DNA of 64,000 bases, taken from sequence record MN850651.1, one strand, 5' to 3'. The position numbers and the translations under genes are program-made. This stretch comes from Escherichia phage moskry. Shown piece by piece: positions 2,106-42,786 of the stretch. The notes below the pieces were generated by a model. That model made no database searches. It worked only from the letters and a program-made list of their open reading frames with translations, and had not been told where the DNA came from. How positions within the stretch are numbered: the first letter of the stretch is position 1; the number at the start of each line of letters is the position of its first letter.

Positions 2106-2439
2106 ATTCTAGGACATTAAGAGCCCGTTCTTCAGTATAGTCAGAACCAAAGACGATAGTGATTTCACCAGGCTTCATATGATTGAAATCGACACTAAAA
2201 GGAATACGAGAACATACTTCGTCTGCCATATCTACGATAACACTACGACACACTTCTCGGTTAACCTGATAAAGCTCTGCAAGTTCTTCACATCGAATAA
2301 CAAGTTCAGTGGCAGGATTTTCTTTGATTTTAGTAAGCATAGTCTTTACCCTTATGTTTTTGTTTACGTTTAGATTGAAGTTCTGATTTCTTTTTGTCCT
2401 TATGGACGGAAGCCTTATTGAAATCATGTTTTGCCACAA
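2041..2439 (-). CDS. hypothetical acidic early protein (occupies the arn position of T4)
   Basis: ORF track; basic N-terminal extension then acidic body; alternative start at 2340. Identity with Arn not verifiable from memory. Confidence 0.4.
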   Translation of the reverse strand: MWQNMISIRLPSIRTKRNQNFNLNVNKNIRVKTMLTKIKENPATELVIRCEELAELYQVNREVCRSVIVDMADEVCSRIPFSVDFNHMKPGEITIVFGSDYTEERALNVLEYEMSFFDIQDYIDSYKERYES

Positions 2440-2642
2440 GATTGTTCATAATGCTTTATAACCTCGTTTAAACATTTACTAGTGAAAGAAAACTTTTTAG
2501 CCACAGAACATTCGATAATGTGCTCTTTCAAATCTTTAGAGTCGGTATAACCCATCTCAATAATAAAGTGGCGAATTAAAGCTTTATTCTTATCATTAAC
2601 AGAATTAAAATAATCTGCTTTAGAATCAATTATTCTCATCAT
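2424..2642 (-). CDS. hypothetical protein
   Basis: ORF track, co-oriented with neighbours, small stop/start overlap. Confidence 0.4.
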   Translation of the reverse strand: MMRIIDSKADYFNSVNDKNKALIRHFIIEMGYTDSKDLKEHIIECSVAKKFSFTSKCLNEVIKHYEQSCGKT

Positions 2643-2907
2643 CTAATTTCCTTAATTGATATTGCAACGAGCTAATAATTTCTTCGTTCATTTTAATATA
2701 CATGTCACGCAAGAAAGGTTTTAATCCATCACGAATAATTGCTAACGTATCACCTTTACATAAATTAACCAAATAAGGATGGTCTAAAGCGTCCCAACCA
2801 GGCTGATTAGCATACATACCATAGTTTTCTTCCATCATAGCATTCAGGCGTTTGATATGATTAATGTGGGCTTCAATAGCATCAATCTGGAGTTGTTTAA
2901 GATTCAT
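2626..2907 (-). CDS. hypothetical protein
   Basis: ORF track; tight packing with neighbours. Confidence 0.45.
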   Translation of the reverse strand: MNLKQLQIDAIEAHINHIKRLNAMMEENYGMYANQPGWDALDHPYLVNLCKGDTLAIIRDGLKPFLRDMYIKMNEEIISSLQYQLRKLDDENN

Positions 2908-3368
2908 TAGTAAAGGTCCTCAGAGTAAAGTTCTTTTTCATTACCACCACGTTCAATACGTACTTGTCCAGCGTAAGTTGCAATAATCATTGCTTCTTCA
3001 CGTGTCCAGTAATTAGAGTATTGATCAATAAAGCCTTGGTCGTCGCCACAAACTTGCTGCGAGACTAATTGAGGACCAACTATATCAAGTACTTCAGCCA
3101 TATCTTTAGAGTAATGACGAGCACCTGGAATAATAAGAGTTCGTCCATCTTTTAATTTAAAACGATTAGCTGCACAGACAATTCGTCGTTGATACTTTTG
3201 GTTTTCATCCCAATACAGAGTCTGCCAACAGATTTCAGGAACTTCATCTAAAACATTTTGTTCTGTATATTCACCGCCGTAAGAAGCTAATTTAGCAGCC
3301 AGACTTTCCGGAGTCTCACGCGACAAAGCTTTATCTAACAGAGCTAAACGTTCTTTAAAAGTTTTCAT
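2907..3368 (-). CDS. hypothetical protein
   Basis: 153-aa ORF, start overlaps the stop of the upstream gene (coupled). Confidence 0.5.
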
Positions 3369-3704: not shown

Positions 3705-4337
3705 TCACAGTACGTTAGTTACAAGGGTAATGATTTCTTTGGACACATTAGGGAAGTCAATGTAAGTATATTTACCACCGATCTTAATCTTAACATCATT
3801 TTCAAGAGAAGTAAACAGCTTTGATTCAGTTTCTGACATGTTGTATGCAAAGATTCTAAGAGAACCATCTCGACGAATTTCGATCTGACGAATACCTAGA
3901 ACTCGTTTAGCGAATCGAACTTCTAAGTTACTACGGTTTTCACCAATTTCTTTAACTTCAACTTTATCTTTAATATTTTCAAAAACAAAGTTTGCTAATT
4001 CATGCATTTCAGGAGTAACTCCACGTGCTTTTCTAGTGTTACGTTTCTGAAGAAGTTCTGGAGCATTTTCTTGGGCAAAGAGGTCTGCAGCTTTTTGGAT
4101 AATATCCATTGCTTCGCCTGTTGCTACAAGTCCATCACCGGATTTTTCGACTAAACCTTTCTTAATCAATACACCAATGTTAGAGTTAACAACCGACGCA
4201 TTGTATTCTGCTTCCAGAGCTTCACGGACATTGGCAGCAGTGGTGAAGTTGTTCTTAATGATATAAACCATTATTGCAGCAGTTTTTTCATTCAGAGCGT
4301 TTTCAGAAGCTTTGATGATGTAAGTAACTTTAGACAT
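3705..4337 (-). CDS. motA: middle-transcription activator MotA
   Basis: 210 aa; MSKVTYIIKASENALNEKTAA.. and NSNIGVLIKKGLVEKSGDGL motif match T4 MotA as recalled; SD GGAGAAA upstream. Confidence 0.9.
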   Translation of the reverse strand: MSKVTYIIKASENALNEKTAAIMVYIIKNNFTTAANVREALEAEYNASVVNSNIGVLIKKGLVEKSGDGLVATGEAMDIIQKAADLFAQENAPELLQKRNTRKARGVTPEMHELANFVFENIKDKVEVKEIGENRSNLEVRFAKRVLGIRQIEIRRDGSLRIFAYNMSETESKLFTSLENDVKIKIGGKYTYIDFPNVSKEIITLVTNVL

Positions 4338-4376
4338 TTTATTTCTCCAATTTGGGTGTTTTGTTTTGATAGGTCT

Positions 4377-4405
4377 ATACTATCATGTTTGAAGCAAAAG
4401 TAAAC
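4377..4405 (-). promoter_or_regulatory. early sigma70-type promoter for motA (GTTTAC-N17-TAGTAT)
   Basis: Read on - strand: GTTTAC, 17-nt spacer, TAGTAT, then conserved AGACCTATCAA; about 40 nt upstream of the motA ATG. Confidence 0.55.
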
Positions 4406-4424
4406 TGTTTTGTGAGAAAAATGC

Positions 4425-4448
4425 ACAAAAGGGAGCCCGAAGGCTCCC
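4425..4448 (-). terminator. rho-independent terminator hairpin downstream of gene 52
   Basis: GGGAGCC-CGAA-GGCTCCC stem-loop followed on - strand by a UUUUGU run. Confidence 0.6.
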
Positions 4449-4524
4449 TAATCATGTTTGTCCAACCAATACAGCCAAATCACTAGTACAGCTATTGCAC
4501 CGAGAAATCCTAAGGCTAGGGCAC

Positions 4525-5850
4525 TCAAAGTGCCTCCAAGTCTTTAGTGTACTCGGTCACAACATCAGTAGACTTCCAATACTCATTTTCTTCTTTCTTA
4601 GCTTTAGCTTCTTCTGCTAGTTTACGTGCTTCGTCGGAAGTGATATGGAAGATGTTAAGACCTACCAGTTTATCGACATGTTCTTTATACATTTCGATTT
4701 GTGCTAGCTCTTCAGTCAAAGCTTTACGAGTCTTGCCCTGAATCACAATTTCACCTGTAATAACTTTTTTGATGAAGTGTGCCTTAGCAAAAGCAAGTTT
4801 AAATGCTTTTTCAGATTCAAGGATTTTGTTGTCAATACGTTTCTGAACGTAAGTCTTACGGACTTCAACAAAATCTTTGATTAAGTCCACTACGTTATCG
4901 TAGACAGCTAATTTACCCTTTTCATTAATCACTGTGATGTTTTGTGAACGACGTTCGATTAGACTAAAATCTTTCATGATTTTTTCATGACGTAGCTCTT
5001 CGTCATCAGGAAGCGAGTACTCTTTACGGAACTTCACCTTAAACCCAAAGCCGTGTTCACCGCAATCATCTTCCCATGAGATTAGACCTTTGTCTTCCAA
5101 CGGGTCAAGAACCTTACTCACATACGTTTCACGGTCAAATTTATACGGGATTTCAGTTATCTGCATTTGAGTTCGAGATGTGAACTTATATGTCCCGTGA
5201 ATCTCATAACGCCCATCAACTTCATGTACTTCACCACGGAATTCCGGGAATTCAACTTTTGGCTTAGTGACATTTTTACCTTGAAGAGCTTGTAATACGG
5301 CCTTTTTGACTGATTTAAAACTATGAGGCAGAATATTTGTTGCGTAACCGGTTGCAATACCAGAGACGCCATTCAAAAGAACTGTCGGAATAATAGGAAG
5401 ATAGAATTTTGGTGGAATGTGTTCTTTATCTTCATGAGCTGGAGCATATTCAGTATCTTTATATACGTTATAGAAATTTTTACTTACACGAGCAAAAATA
5501 TAACGAGATGCTGCAGCTTTTTGGACTGTTCTAGAACCAAAGTTGCCTTGGCCATCTAACAGTGGATAGTTGTTGTTCCATGTGTTAGCCATCAATGCAC
5601 CTGCATCTTGTGCAGAAGATTCACCGTGGTGATAACCTAAATCTGCAACACCACCTGCAATTGACGCAAGTTTATGAAATTTTTCTTTATTACCACGAGC
5701 CAAATCTAACGCACGATGAACCACAAAACGTTGAACCGGCTTAAATCCATCAATCATGTTTGGGATTGCACGGTTTTCAACGGTGTACATCGCATATGCT
5801 AAGGCTTCGTTATCAATAATACTTTTTAGATTACGAGAATTCAATTGCAT
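4525..5850 (-). CDS. 52: DNA topoisomerase II medium subunit gp52
   Basis: 441 aa; GyrA-like N-terminus (..RAIPNMIDGFKPVQRFVV.., active-site region) matching T4 gp52. Confidence 0.95.
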   Translation of the reverse strand: MQLNSRNLKSIIDNEALAYAMYTVENRAIPNMIDGFKPVQRFVVHRALDLARGNKEKFHKLASIAGGVADLGYHHGESSAQDAGALMANTWNNNYPLLDGQGNFGSRTVQKAAASRYIFARVSKNFYNVYKDTEYAPAHEDKEHIPPKFYLPIIPTVLLNGVSGIATGYATNILPHSFKSVKKAVLQALQGKNVTKPKVEFPEFRGEVHEVDGRYEIHGTYKFTSRTQMQITEIPYKFDRETYVSKVLDPLEDKGLISWEDDCGEHGFGFKVKFRKEYSLPDDEELRHEKIMKDFSLIERRSQNITVINEKGKLAVYDNVVDLIKDFVEVRKTYVQKRIDNKILESEKAFKLAFAKAHFIKKVITGEIVIQGKTRKALTEELAQIEMYKEHVDKLVGLNIFHITSDEARKLAEEAKAKKEENEYWKSTDVVTEYTKDLEAL

Positions 5851-5854
5851 ATTT

Positions 5855-5995
5855 TCACCATATTAATGAACGAATAGCCATTATAACATCTGAAATGAAA
5901 AGCACTACTTGGATTAGTCCAAACATCACACCATAATACAGAACCGTAAGCAACAACAAGAGCCCGAAGGCTCCTGCTAGGATTTTCTTAATCAT
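5855..5995 (-). CDS. tiny hydrophobic protein (46 aa)
   Basis: Not in ORF track (<60 aa). MIKKILAGAFGLLLLLTVLYYGVMFGLIQVV..; start overlaps the stop of the upstream tiny ORF as TAATG; between gene 52 and ndd where T4 has 52.1/ac/stp-type small genes. Confidence 0.35.
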   Translation of the reverse strand: MIKKILAGAFGLLLLLTVLYYGVMFGLIQVVLFISDVIMAIRSLIW

Positions 5996-6141
5996 TACTC
6001 GCCTTTTAACACGTTAATAAGAGCTAAGACCGCTAAGGTGCCTTGTGATACGGCCTGTTGAAATACTGTTGTTTCGCCTGTAACTAAAGTGTTAACGAAT
6101 AAAAACGACCAACACAGCAATGCAATAATCCATGATACCAT
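5995..6141 (-). CDS. tiny hydrophobic protein (48 aa)
   Basis: Not in ORF track. MVSWIIALLCWSFLFVNTLVTGETTVFQQAVSQGTLAVLALINVLKGE; single TM helix. Confidence 0.35.
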   Translation of the reverse strand: MVSWIIALLCWSFLFVNTLVTGETTVFQQAVSQGTLAVLALINVLKGE

Positions 6142-6193
6142 TTTAATTACCTCAAAAATAAATTAAAGGCCCAACTTAATAGGCCCGTATAAA

Positions 6194-6640
6194 TTAGTAA
6201 CTCTGCAGAATGAATTTGAAATTATCTGCCAGAAGACGGTTCATTTCAGTGAGTGTTTGATATTCTGATGTATGGTTGCGAGTGAATGCCAGAGCCAATT
6301 GTCCTTTACCATAACCAGTAGTCAGGGGTTTCATGTTCTTAGCTGCAACAAAGATTACATCATATTCAATATTGTTAGTGCCCATAGTACGGGCTAGTTG
6401 CGAACGGCCTTGACGAATGTGAGAAAGAATTGCATCCAACCCTTGTTTAGAACGTTGACGTCCTACAAAGAATCGTGCTGCTACTTGTCGCCAATCAGAT
6501 GAACCTTTAACAAAGAAGTAAAAACCTTCACGAGAACGAAACTCTTTAGAAACTTCAGAACCGTATTCACCATTACGAACTACTGCAACAACTTCACCGC
6601 CAACTGCCAGAAGGTCTTTACGAGTTAAATATTTGGACAT
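6194..6640 (-). CDS. ndd: nucleoid disruption protein Ndd
   Basis: 148 aa; ..[70 protein letters not shown] matches T4 Ndd from memory. Confidence 0.85.
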
Positions 6641-6684
6641 GCTAATTTCCTCAATTGATTAATGTTTTTGTAATCCATGAGAGC

Positions 6685-6713
6685 ATTATACTCTGCTCTC
6701 AAGAGTTTGTACA
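6685..6713 (-). promoter_or_regulatory. early promoter upstream of ndd (TGTACA-N17-TATAAT) with dyad GAGAGCA/TGCTCTC flanking the -10
   Basis: Read directly on - strand. Confidence 0.5.
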
Positions 6714-6716
6714 ATT

Positions 6717-6917
6717 TTATTCGGCCATATCAGAACGTTCAAAAAGCTCTTCAACAGTTAAACATTCAGTGTCATCTTCAATAAAGAATCGAGTCCAACA
6801 CGTTGGGGCGATACAGTTATGAGTTTGTCCGGCGATAGAAGCTACACGAATAAGCTGCTGACCATTATTCAGAACAAATTTTTCACCAATTTCAACATCT
6901 TTAAAAAGCTTAGCCAT
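6717..6917 (-). CDS. hypothetical protein (66 aa)
   Basis: ORF track; SD GAGGAA before ATG; own promoter upstream. Confidence 0.45.
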   Translation of the reverse strand: MAKLFKDVEIGEKFVLNNGQQLIRVASIAGQTHNCIAPTCWTRFFIEDDTECLTVEELFERSDMAE

Positions 6918-6945
6918 TTTGTGTTCCTCATGTTTCAGTAGGACT

Positions 6946-6975
6946 ACTATACCATAATCCTACCTTGATGTAAAC
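6946..6975 (-). promoter_or_regulatory. early promoter GTTTAC-N18-TATAGT
   Basis: Consensus hexamers plus downstream AGTCCTA box; upstream of the 6717-6917 gene. Confidence 0.5.
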
Positions 6976-7167
6976 AATTAAATTACATTAAAATATGTTA
7001 AAGCCAACCATGTTCCAGTGAACGAACATGCGATGTAAAACCCCGTATCACAAATTGTTCTTAGTACAATAAGAAGTGCATTTTTCATAAGTACCTCAAC
7101 ACAATTGAAAATATTATACAAATCATAGGGATACTAAGCAACCATATTCCGATCCACATTTTAGAGC

Positions 7168-7431
7168 TCATATCTCAACTTCCGTGAGTTCCATATATCC
7201 TTTGTTGATAACCTCTTTAAGATCTTTAGAAAGAATAACACCAAAATGGTCATTCATATGTCCATTAACTAAACGAGTTATTTCGGCTTCAGATGACATA
7301 TAAGGCACGTCTGAGTCCCAATGAGATAGACTTAAATGAGTATAAATCATCCCTTCGTCATCTGCAGTGTTGTACATTGAAACAAATTCGCCTGTTACTT
7401 TATGTTTTGCGTAGAAAAATTTAAATTTCAT
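7168..7431 (-). CDS. hypothetical protein (87 aa)
   Basis: ORF track; SD AAGAGGA before ATG. Confidence 0.5.
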   Translation of the reverse strand: MKFKFFYAKHKVTGEFVSMYNTADDEGMIYTHLSLSHWDSDVPYMSSEAEITRLVNGHMNDHFGVILSKDLKEVINKGYMELTEVEI

Positions 7432-7457
7432 GATGTTATCCTCTTTTAGATAGGACT

Positions 7458-7487
7458 ACTATATCATAGTCCTACTTAGTTGTAAAC
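7458..7487 (-). promoter_or_regulatory. early promoter GTTTAC-N18-TATAGT embedded in dyad TAGGACT/AGTCCTA
   Basis: Read directly; upstream of the 7168-7431 gene. Confidence 0.5.
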
Positions 7488-7499
7488 ACTTTTATGAAA

Positions 7500-7976
7500 T
7501 TAAAGATGAAGATACCACCCGTTGTAGTTGCTCTTGCGGACGATTTTCTTTAGGTCTTCATGGTCTCCCACAAACTTTATAGAATAAGAGAAGACGTCAG
7601 GTGAGGTTTCTTTGACATCTAATATAATAATGCAATCTGCGACTCGATGATTCAAGAAGGGCCCTATATTGATTCCATTACCACCCGGATAATCACCACT
7701 GTATCCTGTGGTAACCGAAATCCATTTAGAATCTATCTGGTGTGTCTTGACTTCTACACGAATTCCACAATACTTGGGATGAGCTAACACGTCCCATGCA
7801 TACGTGTACGGGTCTTCTACGTCTTCAATACCTTTATTAACATATCCATCTAGCCAATTTGCTACTACATACTCTGCAAAGACTGCAACCTTACAACGTC
7901 GAACAACGTCTTCTTTTATTTGACCTGGATCTTGTTTCAACGAGTACCGAGCAGTATCAGCGATCTTAACCTTCAT
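7500..7976 (-). CDS. hypothetical protein (about 158 aa; track ORF extends to 8120)
   Basis: ORF track 7500-8120 overlaps the upstream gene by 128 nt; internal Met (MKVKIADTARYSL) gives a non-overlapping start. Lies at the position where T4 has denB; identity unverified. Confidence 0.4.
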   Translation of the reverse strand: MKVKIADTARYSLKQDPGQIKEDVVRRCKVAVFAEYVVANWLDGYVNKGIEDVEDPYTYAWDVLAHPKYCGIRVEVKTHQIDSKWISVTTGYSGDYPGGNGINIGPFLNHRVADCIIILDVKETSPDVFSYSIKFVGDHEDLKKIVRKSNYNGWYLHL

Positions 7977-7992
7977 TTCGCTAGTCAAAAAC

Positions 7993-8280
7993 TCATTCGA
8001 CAGGATAAATGTCGGAAGACTCTTCAGCCTCAACAGTCCCAAGTTCGTCTTTACCATAGATACCTCTGATGTGTAGTTCACCAAAATAAATGCGGTCACC
8101 TTCTTCAAGATATTCTGCATCTACAGGCGGAATTTCAATAACAACTTCGTCGCATTCTAACCAGCCGTAGTGTGCATCACCAGGATGTTTTACCAATTTA
8201 GCACAATAAACTGATTTACACTTATGATGACCACGAAGATTAGCAATTTTGGATTCTGATACGTCAAATGGATGAATCAT
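7993..8280 (-). CDS. hypothetical protein (95 aa)
   Basis: ORF track; first gene after the rIIB terminator. Confidence 0.4.
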   Translation of the reverse strand: MIHPFDVSESKIANLRGHHKCKSVYCAKLVKHPGDAHYGWLECDEVVIEIPPVDAEYLEEGDRIYFGELHIRGIYGKDELGTVEAEESSDIYPVE

Positions 8281-32239: not shown

Positions 32240-33383
32240 GGTCGTTTTCTATATCTGCTGCAGACGGAGCATCAGAAGTTTTAACAGGAACTTTAGTTGT
32301 TGCTTTGCAATTAATAAGGTCGTTAACAGCGTCATCAACTTCTTTAATAGAAGAGATAGCACCTAGTTTATATTTAGTTTCAATTGCATCTCGGAAAGGT
32401 TTGTGTTTAAACAAAGGTCCCCAGAATTCTACACAATCAGTAGCTTTAGCACGCCATGATTTTTCTTCACGAATCATTTCACCTGTTTCTTCGTCAAGGA
32501 ATTCACGAGCATACCAACCGGCTTTAGGCTTAACTACAAAACCAATTTCAGTTGCCATTTCTAACAAGCCACTGAATGGGTCAATACCGCCATCAAAATT
32601 AACCGTGATTGGGAAAGTAGATTTCTCTTTAACTGTACGAGATTTTTCTGCTTTCAACGTGAAGTCATAACCGGTCAATTCTGTACCTTCTTTAACCTGA
32701 CGTTTAGAGATAAAGAATACAGTGTTAGCAGAGTAAAGAATACCTGTACCACCACCCATAATCTCTTTAGGATATAGTCCGCCGATTTCCATTGCTGTAT
32801 GGTTGATTGCAACACACGGAATATCTTTAATAGTCAGATAAGGAGTCACAATACGGAACAGAGATTTAAGTGCCTTAGCACGAGACATATCACCTACAAC
32901 TTTCTCGTTCAATGCATCTTCGGTTTCTTTCTTAGATGCAGTATTACCAATCGAGTCAATAAAGATAATAACTTTATCACCGCGTTCAATAGCGTCAAGC
33001 TGATTAGTCATATCGACTTTAAGTTGTTCGACAGACTGAATTGGTGTATGAACTACACGGTCTAAATCGACACCCATCGAACGGAAGTAAGATTCTGAAG
33101 CACCGAATTCTGAGTCATAAAACAAACAGATTGCATCTTTATATTTCTTCATATACGCTGCAACCATAGTTAGTCCAAACAATGTTTTAAAATGTTTAGA
33201 AGGTGCAGCAAAAATAGTCAAGCCTGATTGCAATCCTGCATTCAGAGCACCACCTAGTGCAATATTCAACATCGGAATACGAGTAGGGACTTCATCACGA
33301 TTATTAAACAGCTTAGACTTAGTCAAGTCTGCAGTCATTTTAGAAGTAGAAGCTTTAATCAGACGAGATTTTAAATCAGACAT
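32211..33383 (-). CDS. uvsX: UvsX RecA-like recombinase
   Basis: 390 aa; ..RIPMLNIALGG.., Walker A-like ..FAAPSKHFKT.., overall match to T4 UvsX. Confidence 0.95.
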   Translation of the reverse strand: MSDLKSRLIKASTSKMTADLTKSKLFNNRDEVPTRIPMLNIALGGALNAGLQSGLTIFAAPSKHFKTLFGLTMVAAYMKKYKDAICLFYDSEFGASESYFRSMGVDLDRVVHTPIQSVEQLKVDMTNQLDAIERGDKVIIFIDSIGNTASKKETEDALNEKVVGDMSRAKALKSLFRIVTPYLTIKDIPCVAINHTAMEIGGLYPKEIMGGGTGILYSANTVFFISKRQVKEGTELTGYDFTLKAEKSRTVKEKSTFPITVNFDGGIDPFSGLLEMATEIGFVVKPKAGWYAREFLDEETGEMIREEKSWRAKATDCVEFWGPLFKHKPFRDAIETKYKLGAISSIKEVDDAVNDLINCKATTKVPVKTSDAPSAADIENDLDEMEDFDE

Positions 33384-33481
33384 TGTATTTTTCCATAGGC
33401 ATCATTATATTTTACTCATGTTTAAAAGATAAGATGATTATATACTAAGGGTTATACAGCATTTAAAAATTTAAATGGCTC

Positions 33482-34030
33482 TTAACGAGCCCATTTAATG
33501 ATTTCTGTAATCAAATAATTACGTTCGCTTGCATTAAATCCTATAACTTTGTTAGCACCATCATGATTAAGTAATTGATACGTTTGGATTTTGTTATGAA
33601 TTGCAAACTCTTCAAAATATGAAATGACTGTATTAAAACCGAATGAAGACAAAGTAATAAGGTCGTCTTCAAAACTTTCAGTCATTTCGTTACGTGTTAA
33701 AATAATTGTGAACACATCATGGTTTTGGCAAAGACGAACATAATCCTGTTCATAAACATCAAGAACCGAGTCCGCATCTTGTCGAATACGTCCATAAACC
33801 CAGTTACTAATATATCCACGGTCTAACAGATAAATCTTAGTAGGGTCTAAATAATTCAACATCGTTTCGAAACAGCCGACTTCATTTCGAGACTTAACAT
33901 CGAAACGCCCATCAACTGTTCGTTTAGGGAAATCAATCTTTACATATCTTTCACTAATTTCCATTATGTCATTAATGAAAGTTGTTTTACCAGCATTATC
34001 CGGCCCGTCTACTAAAATAATTTTAGCCAT
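33482..34030 (-). CDS. P-loop kinase (nucleotide- or sugar-kinase-like), function unknown
   Basis: 182 aa; Walker A ..ILVDGPDNAGKTTF.. near the N-terminus, ..YLLDRGY.. downstream; not present at this position in T4. Confidence 0.5.
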   Translation of the reverse strand: MAKIILVDGPDNAGKTTFINDIMEISERYVKIDFPKRTVDGRFDVKSRNEVGCFETMLNYLDPTKIYLLDRGYISNWVYGRIRQDADSVLDVYEQDYVRLCQNHDVFTIILTRNEMTESFEDDLITLSSFGFNTVISYFEEFAIHNKIQTYQLLNHDGANKVIGFNASERNYLITEIIKWAR

Positions 34031-34031
34031 T

Positions 34032-34931
34032 TTATTCCTCGATTACGACATCTTCGTATTTAGGTATATTATACGGTGAAGAAATTAAAGCATTAAAGTA
34101 GATGAACTCACCAAGACCTGGATGGAATACTTCTTCAGGATTTTCGAAATATTGAATCTTCGGACGTCCTTTAAGAATTTGATAGTACTCAGTTTTAGTT
34201 GGATTAAAAATTCGAATCAGCGCTTCTTCAGGATACTTATTTCTGTCGAAGCTATTATTTGGATCGGTTATATAAAGCGGTTGACCTAATTGAATTGCGC
34301 ATTCAACCACTTGTTCAAAACGATAACACGGGTCACTAATTCGAAATGGATGAAAAATACCATCTAGATGAATAGGAGCCAAATCACCTACAAGACGCTG
34401 CATGATGGAAGGACGTATAACTTTCTGAGTTACGATAATCTTATTACCATCTGCACCTGCGTTAACCAGCACTTCTTTTTGACGTTCATTCAACACAGTA
34501 GTTTGAAGTGAACTATTAACTGACAACATATCGGTTTTTAAGAATTCGTCAATATAAAAACGTGGTTTATTAGGGTCTGCCGTGATATTGAAATTGAATT
34601 CTACATCAAAAGCGCCGTCATAACCAGTGATATCTGTTATTAGAAAATCACAATCATAATAAGCAATTAATGAATCAACCACAAATTCATTTTCAGACCA
34701 GAAATATTTACGAGTGTTATACGCGTTATCTTTATACCATAATGGAACAAACTTAAATTCCGGGAAAAGACGTTCACATTCTTTAATATCAGATGCATTA
34801 CGTGGATATGTAATCACATCACCTGGATTAGCACGGTGCAAATGAAGTTGGAAGTTGCCATCCTTAAGGATAGCATACTGTCCAGTTTCATAAGACCGCA
34901 TACTCAAAATAGGTACGCGGAAAATAGCCAT
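34032..34931 (-). CDS. hypothetical protein (299 aa) occupying the T4 beta-glucosyltransferase position
   Basis: ORF track; stop/start coupled to the kinase and hydroxymethylase genes; no motif I can assign with confidence. Confidence 0.5.
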   Translation of the reverse strand: MAIFRVPILSMRSYETGQYAILKDGNFQLHLHRANPGDVITYPRNASDIKECERLFPEFKFVPLWYKDNAYNTRKYFWSENEFVVDSLIAYYDCDFLITDITGYDGAFDVEFNFNITADPNKPRFYIDEFLKTDMLSVNSSLQTTVLNERQKEVLVNAGADGNKIIVTQKVIRPSIMQRLVGDLAPIHLDGIFHPFRISDPCYRFEQVVECAIQLGQPLYITDPNNSFDRNKYPEEALIRIFNPTKTEYYQILKGRPKIQYFENPEEVFHPGLGEFIYFNALISSPYNIPKYEDVVIEE

Positions 34932-35647
34932 TAGTCAAGAAATCCTTTAACATAATCAAAATCACGTTCAAACACATGGGCACTTACCATGGTATGAGTA
35001 TAATCACCAACTTCTACACCACATTCGTTAGCGATATAATGAAGTAATTTTCCTTGGAGATAAAAATCCAACTGCATAACAACAGCACAGTTCTGAGAAC
35101 GCATATGACAGTGGGTATAAAGCTTACCATCACGAATATAATAAGTCACTGAGTCAGTACATGGATATTCAAGTGTTTCGTCCGAATCAAGCAAAGCCTG
35201 ATCAGAACTTTCTAGAATTTGGAACACAACTCTTCGAGAGTTAGGTTTCTCTTTAAGTTCTTTTAGAAGAGCCGGTAATTGGGCCGCAATGCGAGGACCG
35301 TAGAAAGTGTTGAAGTTTGCAGGCAAAGCGTCTGATTTAGGTTTAGAAATAAATTTAGCGACATTAGGATATGCCTTAAACGCTTCTTCTGCATCAGTAC
35401 CACCAGAAATCATAAACTTCCAGAAGTCTTCGGCATATTCATAAGAGATGCGGTTAATACGTGGGTCGGTCATTTTGAATGATGATGGATTGTCAACAAC
35501 TACTGTCATGGACCCGATTTCATTACAACGTCCAATACGAGAATTAGTTACGAATTCGGGGTTTTCTAAAATTTCACGATTGACTGCTTTAAATGCGGTT
35601 TGAAAATCTGCGGCTTTGATATATTTCATTGTGTTATGTTTTCCCAT
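34931..35647 (-). CDS. 42: thymidylate-synthase-fold dNMP hydroxymethylase (gene-42-like, probably dCMP-specific)
   Basis: 238 aa; ..LEYPCTDSVTYYIRDGKLYTHCHMRSQNCAVVMQLDFY.. aligns with the TS/dCMP-HMase catalytic Cys segment (P-C..Y.(I/V)RD(G/K)K..(Q/N)..RS.D) with Asp at the base-specificity position. Confidence 0.65.
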   Translation of the reverse strand: MGKHNTMKYIKAADFQTAFKAVNREILENPEFVTNSRIGRCNEIGSMTVVVDNPSSFKMTDPRINRISYEYAEDFWKFMISGGTDAEEAFKAYPNVAKFISKPKSDALPANFNTFYGPRIAAQLPALLKELKEKPNSRRVVFQILESSDQALLDSDETLEYPCTDSVTYYIRDGKLYTHCHMRSQNCAVVMQLDFYLQGKLLHYIANECGVEVGDYTHTMVSAHVFERDFDYVKGFLD

Positions 35648-35689
35648 GTTTACCTCAATACAATTTATTATATACTCAATTCGTAAAGC

Positions 35690-35929
35690 TTATTTGAATT
35701 TCTTAGCAATGTTGATATAACGTAAAGCTTCAGAATCTATACTTCCAAGAACACTATGAAGGAATGCATCAGCGTAGTATTCTAGTTGAACAGGTTCTTT
35801 AATCGCTTTAGCCGCTTTAGTTTCAAACAGGCCCATAAGGGCCTTTTTAAGAATTTGTTCGTTGCTATTAATTTTTATGGTCAAAATCTCTTCATTAAGT
35901 TGGTGGTTAAAAGTTTTTCTAGAAATCAT
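35690..35929 (-). CDS. hypothetical protein (79 aa)
   Basis: ORF track; overlaps the upstream gene by 4 nt. Confidence 0.4.
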   Translation of the reverse strand: MISRKTFNHQLNEEILTIKINSNEQILKKALMGLFETKAAKAIKEPVQLEYYADAFLHSVLGSIDSEALRYINIAKKFK

Positions 35930-37104
35930 TCCGGGTACCTCAAAGCGTCGTCAGAGTTAGTTATATCAATAATAGATATAGAATTTTCTGATAACCCATT
36001 TTTAGATAACTGGCGTTTATAATATCTTTCACAATATGTACACGTCGTCCCGCAGATTTCATTAGCACAATCGAAATCTGGATGTCTGAACCACCTTTTT
36101 TCTAAAAAGCCGTCTAACAAAGAGGTTTCAATATTTACCGTATGTGAAAACTCGGTCTCATTTTCAAGAGTGAAAATGGTCTCTAAAGGCTTCCACAATT
36201 CCAACAAATTACCTTCAAACTTTTCAGAAGCATAAGCTTCAAGAACTTTCAAAATGTAGTCGGTGCTACCTGTACGTCCCGAAACTTTAAATTGAGTGAT
36301 ACCAATATCGTTATAAAGTTTCAAATCTTGGGGACGAACAAAACGAGTTCTCAACCAGTTAAATGGGTCTGTATCACGAGCTTTAATACAGTGCTGCATA
36401 GGATATCCGTTTAAGGATTTAGCATCATCAGCCGTAACATCAGTACTATGGAAAATATAGCAAGAGTCACGATAGCTACAATGTGTTGTATACCCTTTAC
36501 CAGCATTAGAACAGAACTCATTTACAAGAACTTCAAATATTATATTGTTCTTATTGCAAAACTCTGCTGCACGCTTCAGGAAAGAAACTGAACGGTTCTT
36601 ATGAATTCCACAGCAGACCTTTTTGATATTATATTGGTCATGCAAGTATTTGATTTGAGTTACAGCATCGACATGTAGAATTGTTGAAACTTCAATCTCA
36701 ATGTCTTTATTGACTTCACGAACAATTTCCATAACAACAGGGTTAGCGATAGTAATACGCCATACGCCTATTGACCAAAGATACTGAACATAATCCTGAA
36801 TAGCTTTCTTCTTCCACTCAACTAGTTCTCTTTTTGAACCAGGATTTATCGTGTTGAGTGTATAGTTAAAGCAAATACCTAATTCGTTACAACGTTTAAC
36901 GTAGTCTTCTAACATCTTTTTGTCAACGTCAGGAAGCCTAAAATCAGGTCTGGCTGCTACAAAAGCCATTTCTCTTGTAGAGCCGTATACTTCGTTTATC
37001 AAGCTATTAGGATAAGTTTTATTGAGCTCTACGATTTTATCAAGAAGAGCTAAATCAAAATTCGTTCCGATTTTAAAAGTATTCATTTTTTTTTTGCATC
37101 TCAC
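35926..37104 (-). CDS. Cys-rich protein of unknown function (392 aa); candidate metal-dependent enzyme/transferase
   Basis: ORF track; Cys clusters (..EFCSNAGKGYTTHCSYRDSCY.. and C-terminal ..CANEICGTTCTYC..); part of the sugar module. Confidence 0.5.
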   Translation of the reverse strand: MRCKKKMNTFKIGTNFDLALLDKIVELNKTYPNSLINEVYGSTREMAFVAARPDFRLPDVDKKMLEDYVKRCNELGICFNYTLNTINPGSKRELVEWKKKAIQDYVQYLWSIGVWRITIANPVVMEIVREVNKDIEIEVSTILHVDAVTQIKYLHDQYNIKKVCCGIHKNRSVSFLKRAAEFCNKNNIIFEVLVNEFCSNAGKGYTTHCSYRDSCYIFHSTDVTADDAKSLNGYPMQHCIKARDTDPFNWLRTRFVRPQDLKLYNDIGITQFKVSGRTGSTDYILKVLEAYASEKFEGNLLELWKPLETIFTLENETEFSHTVNIETSLLDGFLEKRWFRHPDFDCANEICGTTCTYCERYYKRQLSKNGLSENSISIIDITNSDDALRYPE

Positions 37105-37145
37105 GTTAATTGATGCGATGGTTTTTGCAGGTCTTACTTAAATTA

Positions 37146-37547
37146 TTATAGATTAGGTTTATATGATTTAAATGTTTCGAATTCGCCTTTATTCATAAGA
37201 GCTTTGAATTCGTCAGGACGCATAGCTTTGTCGTCGATAATCCAATCATATACTGGTTTATGTGTTAGCAAATTATGGTACTTCAAGCCAATGTTTGCTA
37301 AGTTCTGAATCAGACTTGGGAGAATGTCAATTGCTATACGACCAGGACCTACTGACTTCATACCGCGAGCAGTGTAAAGCGTTATGGTATGCCCTGCATC
37401 ATACAGGGCATTAATGGCAGACACCATTTCGACGTCTGGTTTGAAGTTCACGTAATCACGATTGTTATTCCACTCTGTTATACAATCATCGACATCAAAA
37501 CAAAGATTAAGCATGTTTTCTACACGGTGCATTAGATTCGTTCCCAT
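37146..37547 (-). CDS. HAD-superfamily phosphatase (small, cap-less)
   Basis: 133 aa; motif I ..LCFDVDDCIT.., motif II ..TLYTARG.., motif IV ..WIIDDK.. Confidence 0.55.
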   Translation of the reverse strand: MGTNLMHRVENMLNLCFDVDDCITEWNNNRDYVNFKPDVEMVSAINALYDAGHTITLYTARGMKSVGPGRIAIDILPSLIQNLANIGLKYHNLLTHKPVYDWIIDDKAMRPDEFKALMNKGEFETFKSYKPNL

Positions 37548-39217
37548 TGATGAGTGATATCGCCACCAATTGGGCGATAAGAAACACCAGTTTCTTTATC
37601 AGTTAGTACCCATTTACCAGGATTTTTTGTAATCAGAGTAGCCGTTACAGGTTCTGCTACGTCATAACTAATAGAGCCGTCTTGAAGTACACGGCCCATG
37701 TTACGTAATTGCTTAGTCAGAAGTTCCATACCTTTATAATATGCAGCTACCGCTTTAAGTGGATTATTCTTGAAATAACCACCTAATGCAATCCAGATAA
37801 TTGCCACTGCCAAATGATGATACTCGTTAAACGAACTCATCTTTCCATATTTGTAAACTAATGGATTGATGTTAATAGTCACATTACAAGTTGTTTCATC
37901 AATAGTAAACTGTCCCCAGGTCGGATTAGCGTTGAATTCATCATAACCTGAAACAGCATAAAGCACTTTAGCTTCATCGTACAATTTTGGCCCGTAAATC
38001 TTGGTTTCCCCAAAATATCCACGAGGGTCGATAAACTTGACTTCGCCGTTATCAGTAATCATAGTATTACTGAAGTTCGGGTCACCATGAATAACAGAGT
38101 ACTGTCCCTGAGAACGGTTATGATAACGAATAAGGTGTTCTAAAGCTTGTTTCAGCATTGGCTTCAGACGCCCAATCTTAGTGTAGTTCACATGGGTGAT
38201 TTTACCAAATGAATCAATCAATGGTTGAATGCTTTCACAACGATCAATAACTTTCGTATAGAATTCTTTAGTGAAATCACGGCGAACAGTTTCAGGACTT
38301 ACAAAATAAGTGTCTGTGCTGAATTTCAGTGCATCTAAAATTGCATCAACAATTTGTGGACGAGCAAGACTTGATTTGGATTTAATATATTCAAATGCCG
38401 GCTTACCTTTAATGCGTTCCATTTCAAAGTTATTTTCATTAACAGAAACTAACTGAGGAACTGAATCTGATTTCACTTTAAGATACCATGAAATCTCATC
38501 TTTCTGAAGAGCTCGACCCTGTTCGGTTAATGCGAATTTAGTTACAGTTTCTTCACCAATTTCAACTGCATTAAAACTACGATTAAGTTCACGAACTTCA
38601 TGAGCTTTTTCAAGTTTAGGCATATCACCTAAATCAATTAGATTCATAAGCTCTGATTTATTGAATGCGCTGCCGTAAAGGAATTCTACGAAATCGCGTC
38701 CTTTGCAGTATTCATGAATTTCCTCATCGGTAGAACCCATATAGAATTCCCAGTCTTTGAACTGATAAATTCCTACAACATTACCACCTGTTGAACCTAC
38801 GTTAGTGATATTTTCACCGTCGAAATTATATCGACATTCGTCACCCTTAACATAGATTGCGTTAACATTCCAAGACCATGAACCAAAATCGGGAATAATA
38901 TCACACCAGTTAACAATTACATTATGGCCGTCTAAATCTTTGTGTAATTTAGCAAGAGCATAAGCAGAACCGTACGCTTCATCAACTGTACGAATAGTCA
39001 CATTGAACCCTTCTTGCTCACAATAAGCTCGAACAGTTTCAGCAAATTTTGAATGAACTACTACAATAATTTCATCTGCGCCAAGGTCAGAATAAATTGT
39101 ATACAAATTGCTCAGAATAGTGTCTTGTTTATAGTTAACAAGCACCTTAGGAATATGATGCGTTATTGGATATAAACGAGTCGCCAGTCCAGCACCAAGA
39201 ATAACAGCTTTTTTCAT
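37532..39217 (-). CDS. bifunctional sugar-1-phosphate nucleotidyltransferase (N) / APH-choline-kinase-like anomeric sugar kinase (C)
   Basis: 561 aa; N-terminus MKKAVILGAGLATRLYPITHHIPKVLV (G-x-G-x-R-L-x-P-x-T..PK-x-L nucleotidyltransferase signature); C-terminal ..VIHGDPNFSNTMIT..VKFIDPRGYFG.. (H-G-D-x-x-x-N and I-D-x-x kinase motifs). Confidence 0.7.
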   Translation of the reverse strand: MKKAVILGAGLATRLYPITHHIPKVLVNYKQDTILSNLYTIYSDLGADEIIVVVHSKFAETVRAYCEQEGFNVTIRTVDEAYGSAYALAKLHKDLDGHNVIVNWCDIIPDFGSWSWNVNAIYVKGDECRYNFDGENITNVGSTGGNVVGIYQFKDWEFYMGSTDEEIHEYCKGRDFVEFLYGSAFNKSELMNLIDLGDMPKLEKAHEVRELNRSFNAVEIGEETVTKFALTEQGRALQKDEISWYLKVKSDSVPQLVSVNENNFEMERIKGKPAFEYIKSKSSLARPQIVDAILDALKFSTDTYFVSPETVRRDFTKEFYTKVIDRCESIQPLIDSFGKITHVNYTKIGRLKPMLKQALEHLIRYHNRSQGQYSVIHGDPNFSNTMITDNGEVKFIDPRGYFGETKIYGPKLYDEAKVLYAVSGYDEFNANPTWGQFTIDETTCNVTININPLVYKYGKMSSFNEYHHLAVAIIWIALGGYFKNNPLKAVAAYYKGMELLTKQLRNMGRVLQDGSISYDVAEPVTATLITKNPGKWVLTDKETGVSYRPIGGDITHQWERI

Positions 39218-39245
39218 GTTGAAGTCCTCATTGGTAAGTAGGAGT

Positions 39246-39270
39246 ATTGTACACTATTCTAGTTAAAGCA
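39246..39270 (-). promoter_or_regulatory. candidate MotA-dependent middle promoter (MotA box TGCTTTA, 12 nt, -10 TACAAT) upstream of the nucleotidyltransferase/kinase gene
   Basis: Read on - strand: GAATGCTTTAAC..TACAAT about 30 nt upstream of the ATG. Confidence 0.4.
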
Positions 39271-39398
39271 TTCATACTTTGCTTGTAGTCCAATCATAAT
39301 CCATCCAATTACAAGTGTTGGAATCATTACTGGAGCCGTTAAGCTCCAGTAGATAGTCATGACAAGCATCAATAGTAAAAGTCCTATTGTTATTGCTT

Positions 39399-40034
39399 TC
39401 ATTGTTCGCCTCGTAACATGGCACCTAGTGCACCGCCTGGATGGAACTTAAGGAAGTCATTAGAGGTAAATCCACGCTCAGACGAAAGGTTGATAGCGAA
39501 CGTATCGATAAGCGCTAACAACAATGTAGTGGACATAGTCGGAGCTAAAGAGTTCTCGTCAACTTCTACCGCGATACCGGTACAGAACGTATAATCAAAA
39601 AGAGCTTCGTATTCTTGTGGAATGTCAGGGTTACAATGCAACAGAATCTGTTTGACGTTCGGGCGAATCATTTTAAGATGCTTAGCCACGCCTATCATTT
39701 CTTCAGTTTTACCAGAACGACTAATATGAATCAACACATCATTAGGCGCAATGAATCCTGCATCACCGTGAGAATAATGCCCAGTGTTCAAGTACATACT
39801 AGGGATACCGAGTGAAGCAAATGTCTCAGAAGCTTTAGTTGCAATATTAGCATTCTTACCAACACCTGTAATAATTACTCGGCTTTCATAATTACTAAGT
39901 CCCGGGCGTCGAAGAGTTTCTAGAATAGCATTATAACGAGCAGGGTTTTGACTAATTACTTTGGCCATAGCGGCCAAAGAAGAAGCTTGTTTTATGATTG
40001 CGTCAATAGCGATAGTAATAGGAGTAGTTTTCAT
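39399..40034 (-). CDS. SIS-domain sugar-phosphate isomerase (arabinose-5-phosphate isomerase-like, no CBS domains)
   Basis: 211 aa; ..ITGVGKNANIATKASETFASLGIPS.., ..HISRSGKTEE.. typical SIS (KpsF/GutQ/KdsD-type) motifs. Confidence 0.65.
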   Translation of the reverse strand: MKTTPITIAIDAIIKQASSLAAMAKVISQNPARYNAILETLRRPGLSNYESRVIITGVGKNANIATKASETFASLGIPSMYLNTGHYSHGDAGFIAPNDVLIHISRSGKTEEMIGVAKHLKMIRPNVKQILLHCNPDIPQEYEALFDYTFCTGIAVEVDENSLAPTMSTTLLLALIDTFAINLSSERGFTSNDFLKFHPGGALGAMLRGEQ

Positions 40035-40074
40035 ATTTCTCTCATTTAATTAGTTTACCGTCCATGTCATTATA

Positions 40075-42786
40075 TCAAAAATCGAACATATCGAACAGAG
40101 ATGCTTTCTTCTCGTAATCGAGTTTCGCCGCTGATGTGAATCCTTCAAGTGGTTTAATAAATGTCTTCTCAAGGAGAACCGTGTAGTCCATCCAATGAAG
40201 TACATCATCTTTGATTAAATCAGTGATTTCAGTACCAGAAGGCCATGCGATACATTTATCACCGAATGGGTTTCCTTCACGTAAAGGCAGAACATATACT
40301 TTTTCACCTTCTACAACTTGTGGTGCATCGATATTACCTTTGATAGCCCGGTTATACGTCAGAATTCCACGAATATGGAACGGGCATTTAGGACCAGGGA
40401 ATCCACCTACATCATATTTAGCAATGTTATTCGCAGAAGATACCGACGCGATGCTAATATAATTCAATTGACGGAATTCTTTTTCAAACTCTTTAAAATA
40501 TTCTTGTAATGATTCTTCACCTTCTTGAAGCATACGACGAATACATTCCTTAAGAGCTTTCTGTACTGCTTTAGGGGTTGAAGATTTCTGTGTTTCGAGA
40601 CCCATGATTTTAAGCTTAGGTTCAGCGTATCTAGTTCCTTCCATATCCCACACGTTTAATGCATAACGTTTCTTACCAGTCCAAAATCCACCAATACCTT
40701 TAGAACCAAGCGGAGGTCCAGCGATAGCTTCTCGGTCCATGAACATCAAATGTTGCTTATTATTCATGTATTCGCACATTTCACGGAAACCTCTATCAAT
40801 AGCAGGTTCCATACGTTCACGAGCGAACTTATCTAAGAAGTCTACCCAATGGTTAGTATCGCGGAATTTAGATTCACCAACCTTATCAATAATTTTATCT
40901 GCAGATACGTAAATGGAGTCTGTATCACCATATAGAACGAAAGCTTCACCTTCTGTACCACAAACTTCATTCAGATATTCATTAACTTTACGTTCAATCC
41001 ACTGTAAAGCCATTTGACCAAATGTTGTGATTGCAGTAGCATTACGCAAATCGTAATAACGGAACCAAACGTTGCCAAGTGCACCATAAAGTGAGTTGAT
41101 AAGCAATTTACGGTTAATTTGGGCAGTCATACCTGCAACTTCAGTACGTTGAGCTCTAAACAACATTTCATTAAGAGATTTAGCAGACAACTTTTTAATC
41201 TTTTCTTTAATCTCATCGCTAAAGTCGAAACGATAATCAACATCTAATGGTTCGTCAACAGAAAGATTAGGATTATGCAACGCCTCTTTAATTATTTCAC
41301 CATTACGTTGAGCCGCAAGCATATAACCTTTATGTTCTTTACGTTGATTAAAGACTTTAGTGATTTCAGTTGGAACTACACCATCACGGTCTTTATAATA
41401 CATCATGCCGTTAGGAGAGCAACTGTACACATCAGAAGGACGTTCAGCAACAGCGTTAATATAATCATGCAATGGAGCTACTTTAAACGTTCCTGCTATT
41501 GTTTCTGGGCTAATATTCACTTGGCGAATAATACTTGGATACAGAGATGTAAGGTCGAAACTCATTACATATTTGTATCGATTTGGAATAGGTTCCTTAA
41601 CAAAAGCGCCAGGATAAGGTTGAACTGGATGCGAACGACCTTGTGGAATCACCTTGTTCTGCTCTTTAAGGCTATTGAAAATAATAGCGTCCCAAGTTTT
41701 AATTGGACTGAACACAGATTGAATCTGAATTTTAGCATAATACCCCATGTCCAAACTCAAGTTAATGAACTGGCGTTTAGCATCAATTTGCAATACACGA
41801 TACACGTCGATAATGTTATAAGAAATATATCGTTGGTGATTGCTTTCACGAAGCTTAGAAATAGGGCCGTCATATTTCAGTTTACCAACGTTCAATTCAA
41901 ATTCTGAAATGTAATCCAGAGAATATGACGGTTGGTTCGTGAAAGAGAACTTTTTGTAAAGGTCAATGTAATCAAGAACAGAGATACCGAACAATGTAAT
42001 GATTTCACGAGAACCATACATGTTTTCGATAACTTTAACACGAGTTTTACGATGTGGTGATAAACGTTTCGCAGTAGATTCGCCAAAAATATTCTTGATT
42101 CGGTTATACACATATGGAATATCAAATGACTCAACGTTCCATCCAGTCAAAATGACAGGAGTTTTCTGTTGCCAGAAGTTGAGATATTCCATCAATAATT
42201 CTTTTTCATTATCAAACGGCATATAAACGATTTTGTCGATAATTTCGGATGGAACTTCATCACCACCTTGTTCTTGAAGCTTAGCTGCAATTTCGATAGA
42301 CCATTCTTCTACATTACCATATGGAGAATTCAATAGATCAAATACGTAGAACCTGTCGTCAATTGAGTCATAATGGGTGATGGCATCAATTGGATGTTTT
42401 GCTTGTGACGGCTCAGGGAACCCATCCGGAGATGTTACTTCGATGTCGAAGTTAGCCACACGAATTTTTGTATGGTCGTATTTGATTTCATAGTTATAAG
42501 TGTCAGACAAATACGCCAATTTGAAATCGTCCATGCCAAGTGCTTCAAGTCCGATATCTTCCATGCGTTTAATCCATTGGGAGGCATCACGCATATTAGC
42601 GAACAACTTACGAGTACACGGCTTACCGTAGATATCGAAATATTTCGTAGCCTGACTTTCTGGACAATGAGCAAACAGTGATGGTTTATATTCTACTTCA
42701 CGAGTACGTTCACGGCCATTAGAATCGATGTAACGTTCAAAAATTGAATCACCAATCTGTTCAACCGTTAAGTAAAATTCTTTCAT
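40075..42786 (-). CDS. 43: DNA polymerase gp43 (family B, RB69-type)
   Basis: 903 aa; N-terminus MKEFYLTVEQIGDSIFERYIDSNGRERTREVEYKPSLFAHCPE.. and exo/pol motifs (..FDIEV.., ..YGDTDS..) match the RB69 polymerase sequence as I remember it. Confidence 0.97.
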   Translation of the reverse strand: MKEFYLTVEQIGDSIFERYIDSNGRERTREVEYKPSLFAHCPESQATKYFDIYGKPCTRKLFANMRDASQWIKRMEDIGLEALGMDDFKLAYLSDTYNYEIKYDHTKIRVANFDIEVTSPDGFPEPSQAKHPIDAITHYDSIDDRFYVFDLLNSPYGNVEEWSIEIAAKLQEQGGDEVPSEIIDKIVYMPFDNEKELLMEYLNFWQQKTPVILTGWNVESFDIPYVYNRIKNIFGESTAKRLSPHRKTRVKVIENMYGSREIITLFGISVLDYIDLYKKFSFTNQPSYSLDYISEFELNVGKLKYDGPISKLRESNHQRYISYNIIDVYRVLQIDAKRQFINLSLDMGYYAKIQIQSVFSPIKTWDAIIFNSLKEQNKVIPQGRSHPVQPYPGAFVKEPIPNRYKYVMSFDLTSLYPSIIRQVNISPETIAGTFKVAPLHDYINAVAERPSDVYSCSPNGMMYYKDRDGVVPTEITKVFNQRKEHKGYMLAAQRNGEIIKEALHNPNLSVDEPLDVDYRFDFSDEIKEKIKKLSAKSLNEMLFRAQRTEVAGMTAQINRKLLINSLYGALGNVWFRYYDLRNATAITTFGQMALQWIERKVNEYLNEVCGTEGEAFVLYGDTDSIYVSADKIIDKVGESKFRDTNHWVDFLDKFARERMEPAIDRGFREMCEYMNNKQHLMFMDREAIAGPPLGSKGIGGFWTGKKRYALNVWDMEGTRYAEPKLKIMGLETQKSSTPKAVQKALKECIRRMLQEGEESLQEYFKEFEKEFRQLNYISIASVSSANNIAKYDVGGFPGPKCPFHIRGILTYNRAIKGNIDAPQVVEGEKVYVLPLREGNPFGDKCIAWPSGTEITDLIKDDVLHWMDYTVLLEKTFIKPLEGFTSAAKLDYEKKASLFDMFDF

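Follow-up and report, generated by a model that had tools for sequence, protein, structure and literature searches.

A cap-less HAD phosphatase gene and its identity with AfhF

The stretch analyzed here, 64,000 nucleotides (nt) of Escherichia phage moskry (sequence record MN850651.1; hereafter the window), carries on its minus strand a short gene for a phosphatase of the HAD superfamily, directly downstream of a gene for a fused sugar nucleotidyltransferase/kinase of 561 amino acids (aa). The longest open reading frame (ORF) of the phosphatase, taken from a program-made list, starts with ATG and encodes 133 aa (Table 1). A preliminary description of this DNA had already delimited this ORF, placed it beside a fused nucleotidyltransferase/kinase gene and read its product as a minimal HAD enzyme with motifs I, II and IV. 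The ORF list and the translation agree with the first of these points, Pfam and NCBIfam matches of the 561-aa ORF with the second, and translation of the exact sub-coordinates returned all three motifs in the places described.

Measured against the HAD motif I pattern DxDx(T/V), the phage sequence reads D18-V-D20-D-C22, with Cys at the fifth position where most homologues have Thr, and in a PDB sequence search it aligns DxD to DxD with the DLDGT of entry 1xpj. The Ser/Thr of motif II, the Lys of motif III, which the preliminary description had not listed, and the DD pair of motif IV are all present (T59, K97 and D105-D106). Since 28 homologues, with identities down to 35%, all share D18, D20, T59, R61, K97, D105 and D106, these motifs are not chance strings; the Asp nucleophile, on which the preliminary description had staked its HAD assignment, is intact. 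The AlphaFold2 model (predicted local distance difference test score, pLDDT, 81) shows alternating strands and helices in a minimal Rossmannoid core, and its top structural matches are all HAD phosphatases. Only about 20 residues lie between motif I and helix 1, so the enzyme lacks a cap domain, as had been proposed. The gene is real, and its product is a cap-less (C0) HAD phosphatase.

In the PDB search, residues 6-133 were found to be 100% identical (E 7.8e-88) to chain A of entry 9iqw, which is titled 'phage HY126 encoded D-arabinose 1,5-diphosphate phosphatase AfhF'. The corresponding RB69 protein, gp51, has been described as an AfhF-like HAD phosphatase that converts arabinofuranose 1,5-bisphosphate (Araf1,5P2) to arabinofuranose 1-phosphate (Araf1P) (Lee et al., NAR 2026, PMC13326640). 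The window protein shows no difference of substance from HY126 AfhF (PDB 9iqw), RB69 gp51 or gp81 of Acinetobacter phage DLP3; compared with AfhF, the longest ORF has five additional N-terminal codons (MGTNL), which are probably untranslated. For phage HY126, PMC13326640 summarizes the enzymology of He et al. (doi 10.1038/s41589-026-02150-z; Nat Chem Biol, 2026) as a kinase step first (arabinofuranose 5-phosphate, Araf5P, to Araf1,5P2) and a phosphatase step next (to Araf1P), and, in the same summary, AfhF depends on Mg2+.

We put the probability at roughly 0.93 that the window protein is AfhF, a Mg2+-dependent C0 HAD phosphatase that takes the 5-phosphate off Araf1,5P2 and so yields arabinose 1-phosphate (Ara1P) in the third of four steps toward uridine diphosphate (UDP)-arabinose. 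Its Mg2+ dependence, substrate and regiochemistry are taken from the literature, while its identity, motifs, fold and context were established here. Several points weigh against this assignment. The substrate and regiochemistry rest on the title of the PDB entry and on the summary of He et al. in PMC13326640, and Table 1 of PMC13326640 labels RB69p051 and DLP3_081 'dephosphorylates Araf5p to Ara', an older wording. A Pfam scan of the 133-aa protein matched no family, and its match to NCBIfam TIGR01689 (the HAD 'capsule biosynthesis phosphatase' model, EcbF/BcbF), at 49.3 bits (E 4.3e-13), lies far under the curated cut-off of 162 bits, so the phosphatase is related to that subfamily without belonging to it.

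Table 1. Features of the phosphatase gene and of the surrounding arabinose cluster in the window.
Feature	Coordinates	Strand	Basis
Longest HAD phosphatase ORF, 133 aa, ATG at 37547	37146..37547	-	ORF list, translation
Probable true coding sequence, 128 aa from M6; identical to AfhF of PDB 9iqw, length of RB69p051	37146..37532	-	
HAD motif I FDVDDCIT, residues 17-24	37476..37499	-	Translation, homologue alignment
D18, putative nucleophile	37494..37496	-	Invariant in homologues; 1xpj alignment
D20, putative general acid/base	37488..37490	-	Invariant in homologues; 1xpj alignment
HAD motif II TLYTARG, residues 56-62; T59, then invariant R61-G62	37362..37382	-	Translation, alignment
HAD motif III Lys K97, invariant K-P	37257..37259	-	Translation, alignment
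HAD motif IV IIDDK, residues 103-107; D105 and D106 would be Mg2+ ligands	37227..37241	-	Translation, alignment
TAATG, stop of AfhE-like gene overlapping M6 start by 1 nt	37530..37534	-	Translation; JS10 comparison
AfhE-like bifunctional protein, 561 aa	37532..39217	-	Pfam NTP_transferase 8.5e-10, NCBIfam, PMC13326640
Domains of the 561-aa protein (assigned roles): N-terminal sugar-1-phosphate nucleotidyltransferase (UDP-arabinose); C-terminal APH/choline-kinase-like (arabinose-5-phosphate C1)			
SIS-domain arabinose-5-phosphate isomerase (KdsD/KpsF-like)	39399..40034	-	Pfam SIS 1.7e-10; TIGR00393 2.2e-32; RB69p055 annotation
Thymidylate-synthase-like deoxycytidine monophosphate (dCMP) 5-hydroxylase, source of the 5-hydroxycytosine acceptor	34931..35647	-	Pfam, PDB 9iqc/9ir2 match, PMC13326640
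Putative DNA arabinosyltransferase, 299 aa	34032..34931	-	ORF list, RB69 annotation, PMC13326640

Start codon and coupling to the upstream gene

The upstream 561-aa ORF ends at 37532, and the longest phosphatase ORF overlaps it by 16 nt, the figure given in the preliminary description. This figure holds for the longest ORF; the likely overlap is that of a start at the second ATG (M6, 37530..37532), where stop and start codon share a single nucleotide. The TAATG junction that results is shared by phage JS10, where the protein is 62% identical, and M6 is the start both of RefSeq RB69p051 (128 aa) and of the PDB 9iqw construct. Residues 1-7 are disordered in the AlphaFold2 model. The JS10 annotation starts at the equivalent of M1. 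The conservation of M1 is uninformative, because the Gln-Trp codons in the conserved C-terminus of the upstream gene (HQWERI here, HKQWKKI in JS10) contain its ATG. A Shine-Dalgarno search found none that was convincing before the candidate starts M1, M6 and M12, with weak upstream pairings of -4.9, -4.2 and +0.2 kcal/mol, respectively. The true start is probably M6, with the 1-nt TAATG overlap. Whether from M6 or from M1, translation of the phosphatase gene would be coupled to that of the kinase/nucleotidyltransferase gene, as the preliminary description had suggested; with the favored M6 start, the coupling would be by termination and reinitiation at the TAATG overlap.

The same junction (around window position 37530) is the exact site at which phage a20 has an inserted gene for a 253-aa homing endonuclease with a GIY-YIG-like N-terminus, located at 2265..3026 of the a20 locus piece and beginning at the ATG that corresponds to M1 of the window. 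An endonuclease is listed at this junction in Serratia phage CHI14 as well. The a20 phosphatase has a new short N-terminus (MKPLH...), and this difference indicates that the residues before about L13 are dispensable.

Arabinose activation and other possible substrates

The DNA of RB69 and of DLP3 contains arabinosylated 5-hydroxycytosine, not hydroxymethylcytosine; RB69 gp55 is an arabinose-5-phosphate isomerase, and RB69 gp52:53 is an AfhE-like bifunctional arabinose-5-phosphate kinase/UDP-arabinose pyrophosphorylase (PMC13326640). In the window, the phosphatase gene lies in such an arabinose-activation context, together with genes for an AfhE-like kinase/nucleotidyltransferase, an arabinose-5-phosphate isomerase and a dCMP 5-hydroxylase, in the same order as in RB69, a20 and JS10. 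The general role given in the preliminary description, that of a sugar-phosphate enzyme in arabinose activation, is borne out by this setting, by the identity with 9iqw and by PMC13326640. The thymidylate-synthase-like protein is nearly identical over its full 238 aa to PDB 9iqc/9ir2 (E 1.1e-160), presumably the HY126 hydroxylase structure cited in PMC13326640. The window would accordingly stem from HY126 or from a phage very close to it. For the 561-aa protein, Pfam gave weak kinase-family matches at residues 344-409, and a PDB sequence search yielded only a distant match to CTP:phosphocholine cytidylyltransferase.

In the pathway as we would reconstruct it, the SIS isomerase would turn ribulose-5-phosphate of the host into arabinose-5-phosphate, and the C-terminal kinase domain of the AfhE-like protein would add an anomeric (C1) phosphate to give arabinose-1,5-bisphosphate. 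AfhF would then strip the now superfluous 5-phosphate, leaving arabinose-1-phosphate for the N-terminal nucleotidyltransferase domain to convert to UDP-arabinose, from which phage glycosyltransferases would transfer arabinose to 5-hydroxycytosine in the phage DNA, giving protection from host nucleases. By the HAD paradigm, from which the roles of these residues are inferred, D18 would attack the phosphate to form an aspartyl-phosphate, with D20 as acid/base, T59 and K97 holding the phosphoryl group, and D105 and D106 holding Mg2+. More speculatively, the invariant R61 may bind the retained 1-phosphate; K89 is likewise invariant.

This order of reactions mirrors the logic of the heptose route, in which the GmhA isomerase, the HldE/HddA kinase and the GmhB bisphosphate phosphatase are followed by a nucleotidyltransferase. 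GmhB, a D-glycero-D-manno-heptose 1,7-bisphosphate 7-phosphatase of the HAD-IIIA type, acts on a heptose and not a pentose, and the phage protein is shorter by about 50 residues. GmhB also has a zinc-binding Cys/His loop. In the translation of the phage phosphatase the only Cys are C16 and C22, so a loop of the GmhB type is impossible and none is present; its score against the HAD-IIIA model TIGR01662, 14.6 bits, falls under the cut-off of 44.6 bits. GmhB is an analogue of the phage enzyme within the HAD superfamily and not its orthologue. KdsC (the 3-deoxy-D-manno-octulosonate (Kdo)-8-phosphate phosphatase, YrbI) is likewise a cap-less HAD sugar-phosphate phosphatase and acts downstream of arabinose-5-phosphate isomerase in bacteria; no close structural or sequence match of the phage phosphatase to it was obtained. 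About 30% identity, with DxD motifs aligned, was found to Vibrio cholerae APC26283 (PDB 1xpj, E 5e-10). In contrast to AfhF, 1xpj, Bacteroides BT_0820 (PDB 2obb) and the TIGR01689 proteins have no demonstrated substrate.

The preliminary description suggested that the phosphatase could convert arabinose-5-phosphate to free arabinose, which the kinase domain would then phosphorylate at C1 in a salvage-type route. This guess matches an earlier published prediction, because Table 1 of PMC13326640 words the roles of RB69p051 and DLP3_081 in the same way, and the kinase domain does resemble APH/choline-type and anomeric sugar kinases acting on unphosphorylated sugars. In contrast, the title of PDB 9iqw names D-arabinose 1,5-diphosphate, not arabinose-5-phosphate, as the substrate, and the text of PMC13326640, to the extent that it relays He et al., has AfhE phosphorylate Araf5P and AfhF act on the bisphosphate. 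The heptose precedent, too, runs from kinase to bisphosphate phosphatase to nucleotidyltransferase. With this title and the enzymology as reported in PMC13326640, a step to free arabinose is not supported, and we consider it unlikely.

As its second proposal, the preliminary description raised a split polynucleotide kinase/3'-phosphatase, active on the ends of nucleic acids, of which the protein could be the phosphatase half, and some database records do name its homologues 'polynucleotide kinase'. However, the close relative RB69 carries elsewhere a complete pseT of 299 aa that has both domains, and BLASTP of the HAD protein against RB69 PseT gave no match (E 0.13). Unlike the T4 PseT phosphatase domain, the phage phosphatase has no P-loop kinase partner and belongs to another substrate class, and its sequence does not detectably resemble that of the phage's own PseT; the neighboring 'kinase', joined to a sugar nucleotidyltransferase in one protein, has an APH/choline-kinase-like fold and is not a P-loop polynucleotide kinase. 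In the wider family (3,590 representatives after 50% clustering, at E <= 1e-3), the phosphatase occurs, in bacteria among others, in fusions with SIS, cytidylyltransferase-like, kinase-like, NeuB and glycosyltransferase domains, and one member adjoins a SIS gene in a bacterial contig. These fusions and the SIS neighbor indicate sugar-phosphate chemistry, not nucleic-acid end repair, for the family. A sugar-bisphosphate activity has, moreover, been assigned to the identical protein (PDB 9iqw). A split polynucleotide kinase/phosphatase is, on this evidence, highly improbable, and we give just as little credence to a nucleotide-pool enzyme resembling a 5'(3')-deoxyribonucleotidase, which would dephosphorylate, e.g., dCMP or 5-hydroxy-dCMP.

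Neighboring genes, relatives and annotation

The cluster (33400..40100) is flanked by genes for DNA polymerase, uvsX, gp41 and the clamp loader, and is 97.8% identical to that of Escherichia phage RB69 and 98-99% identical to those of other Mosigvirus genomes. In the RB69 reference, the glycosyltransferase gene is split into ORF046c/047c (2133..3033 of the RB69 locus piece) and the kinase/nucleotidyltransferase gene into ORF052c/053c (5630..7316). In the window each of the two is one intact ORF (299 aa and 561 aa), which agrees with the statement in PMC13326640 that sequencing errors account for the splits in RB69. A scan of 33300..40300 for promoters and terminators gave 23 and 5 hits, against 25.3 and 4.1 in shuffled controls, and we claim no internal signal.

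Three further ORFs of the cluster may be mentioned. A 182-aa P-loop protein (33482..34030, minus strand) carries a thymidylate kinase annotation (phrog_761) and is present in addition to the phage's canonical deoxynucleoside monophosphate kinase, which is encoded elsewhere; it presumably phosphorylates 5-hydroxy-dCMP. Its gene is kept by the phosphatase gene in JS10, and its RB69 counterpart is listed as 'nucleotide kinase' (PMC13326640). Between the phosphatase and dCMP 5-hydroxylase genes sits the gene for a 392-aa protein of the peptidase U32 family (35926..37104, minus strand; Pfam PF01136, 7.7e-11), which also matches UbiU weakly. The U32 members RlhA (5-hydroxycytidine in 23S ribosomal RNA), TrhP and UbiU/V are O2-independent iron-sulfur hydroxylases. 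By analogy, the phage U32 protein could supply 5-hydroxycytosine anaerobically, next to the O2- and flavin-dependent enzyme. A literature search joining U32 proteins, 5-hydroxycytosine and phages found no papers, and PDB sequence searches with the U32-like and glycosyltransferase neighbors gave no match; the orthologue RB69 gp50 is listed, without experiment, only as 'sugar or heterocycle reductase' (PMC13326640). Lastly, a possibly coding 50-aa ORF with a GTG start (39272..39424, minus strand) is found between the genes for the isomerase and the kinase/nucleotidyltransferase, sharing 26 nt with the former. At its site, RB69 has the 36-aa ORF054c ('similar to T4 42-imm intercistronic region') and a20 a 47-aa ORF.

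By tblastn, the phosphatase was found in 383 phage records, among them phages of Escherichia, Shigella, Acinetobacter, Klebsiella, Serratia, Yersinia, Proteus and others, Dhakavirus included, and its gene is usually a neighbor of the nucleotidyltransferase/kinase gene; T4-like cyanophages have more distant copies. In Synechococcus phage S-SSM7, a 111-aa homologue (SSSM7_130), mis-named 'phosphoheptose isomerase', is encoded in a region (3941..8099 of the locus piece) that also holds genes for a carbohydrate kinase, a nucleotide-sugar epimerase and two small nucleotidyltransferases. Such a neighborhood suggests that T4-like cyanophages have a heptose-like nucleoside diphosphate-sugar pathway with the same minimal HAD enzyme. 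The clade of AfhF, 1xpj and TIGR01689 has no Pfam model, and nearly all of its members are unannotated or mis-named 'phosphoheptose isomerase'. We tentatively entertain, at somewhat less than even odds, the idea that this clade is a general phosphatase family of a minimal 'distal-phosphate' kind, filling the role of GmhB in many nucleotide-sugar pathways; T4-like cyanophages and bacterial capsule loci may be cases of it.

RefSeq RB69p051 (128 aa) is named 'phosphoheptose isomerase', a name that comes from phrog_1238 and is wrong, since the protein has a HAD fold. Together with 'capsule biosynthesis protein' and 'polynucleotide kinase', this name has spread over hundreds of phage records for the phosphatase.

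The arabinosylation pathway, the crystal structure of this protein included, was reportedly worked out in 2025-2026 by He et al. (2026), Mahler et al. (2025) and Lee et al. (2026). The function of the gene is already known, and the protein has already been crystallized and characterized; because the pathway and the structure of this exact protein are published, the present analysis brings no new biology; what it offers in practice is a correction of the widespread 'phosphoheptose isomerase' annotation (RefSeq, PHROGs phrog_1238). AfhF catalyzes one step of the pathway by which the DNA of many T-even-type phages, RB69-like ones among them, comes to bear arabinosyl-5-hydroxycytosine; restriction enzymes are blocked by this modification, and CRISPR and further defenses are affected.
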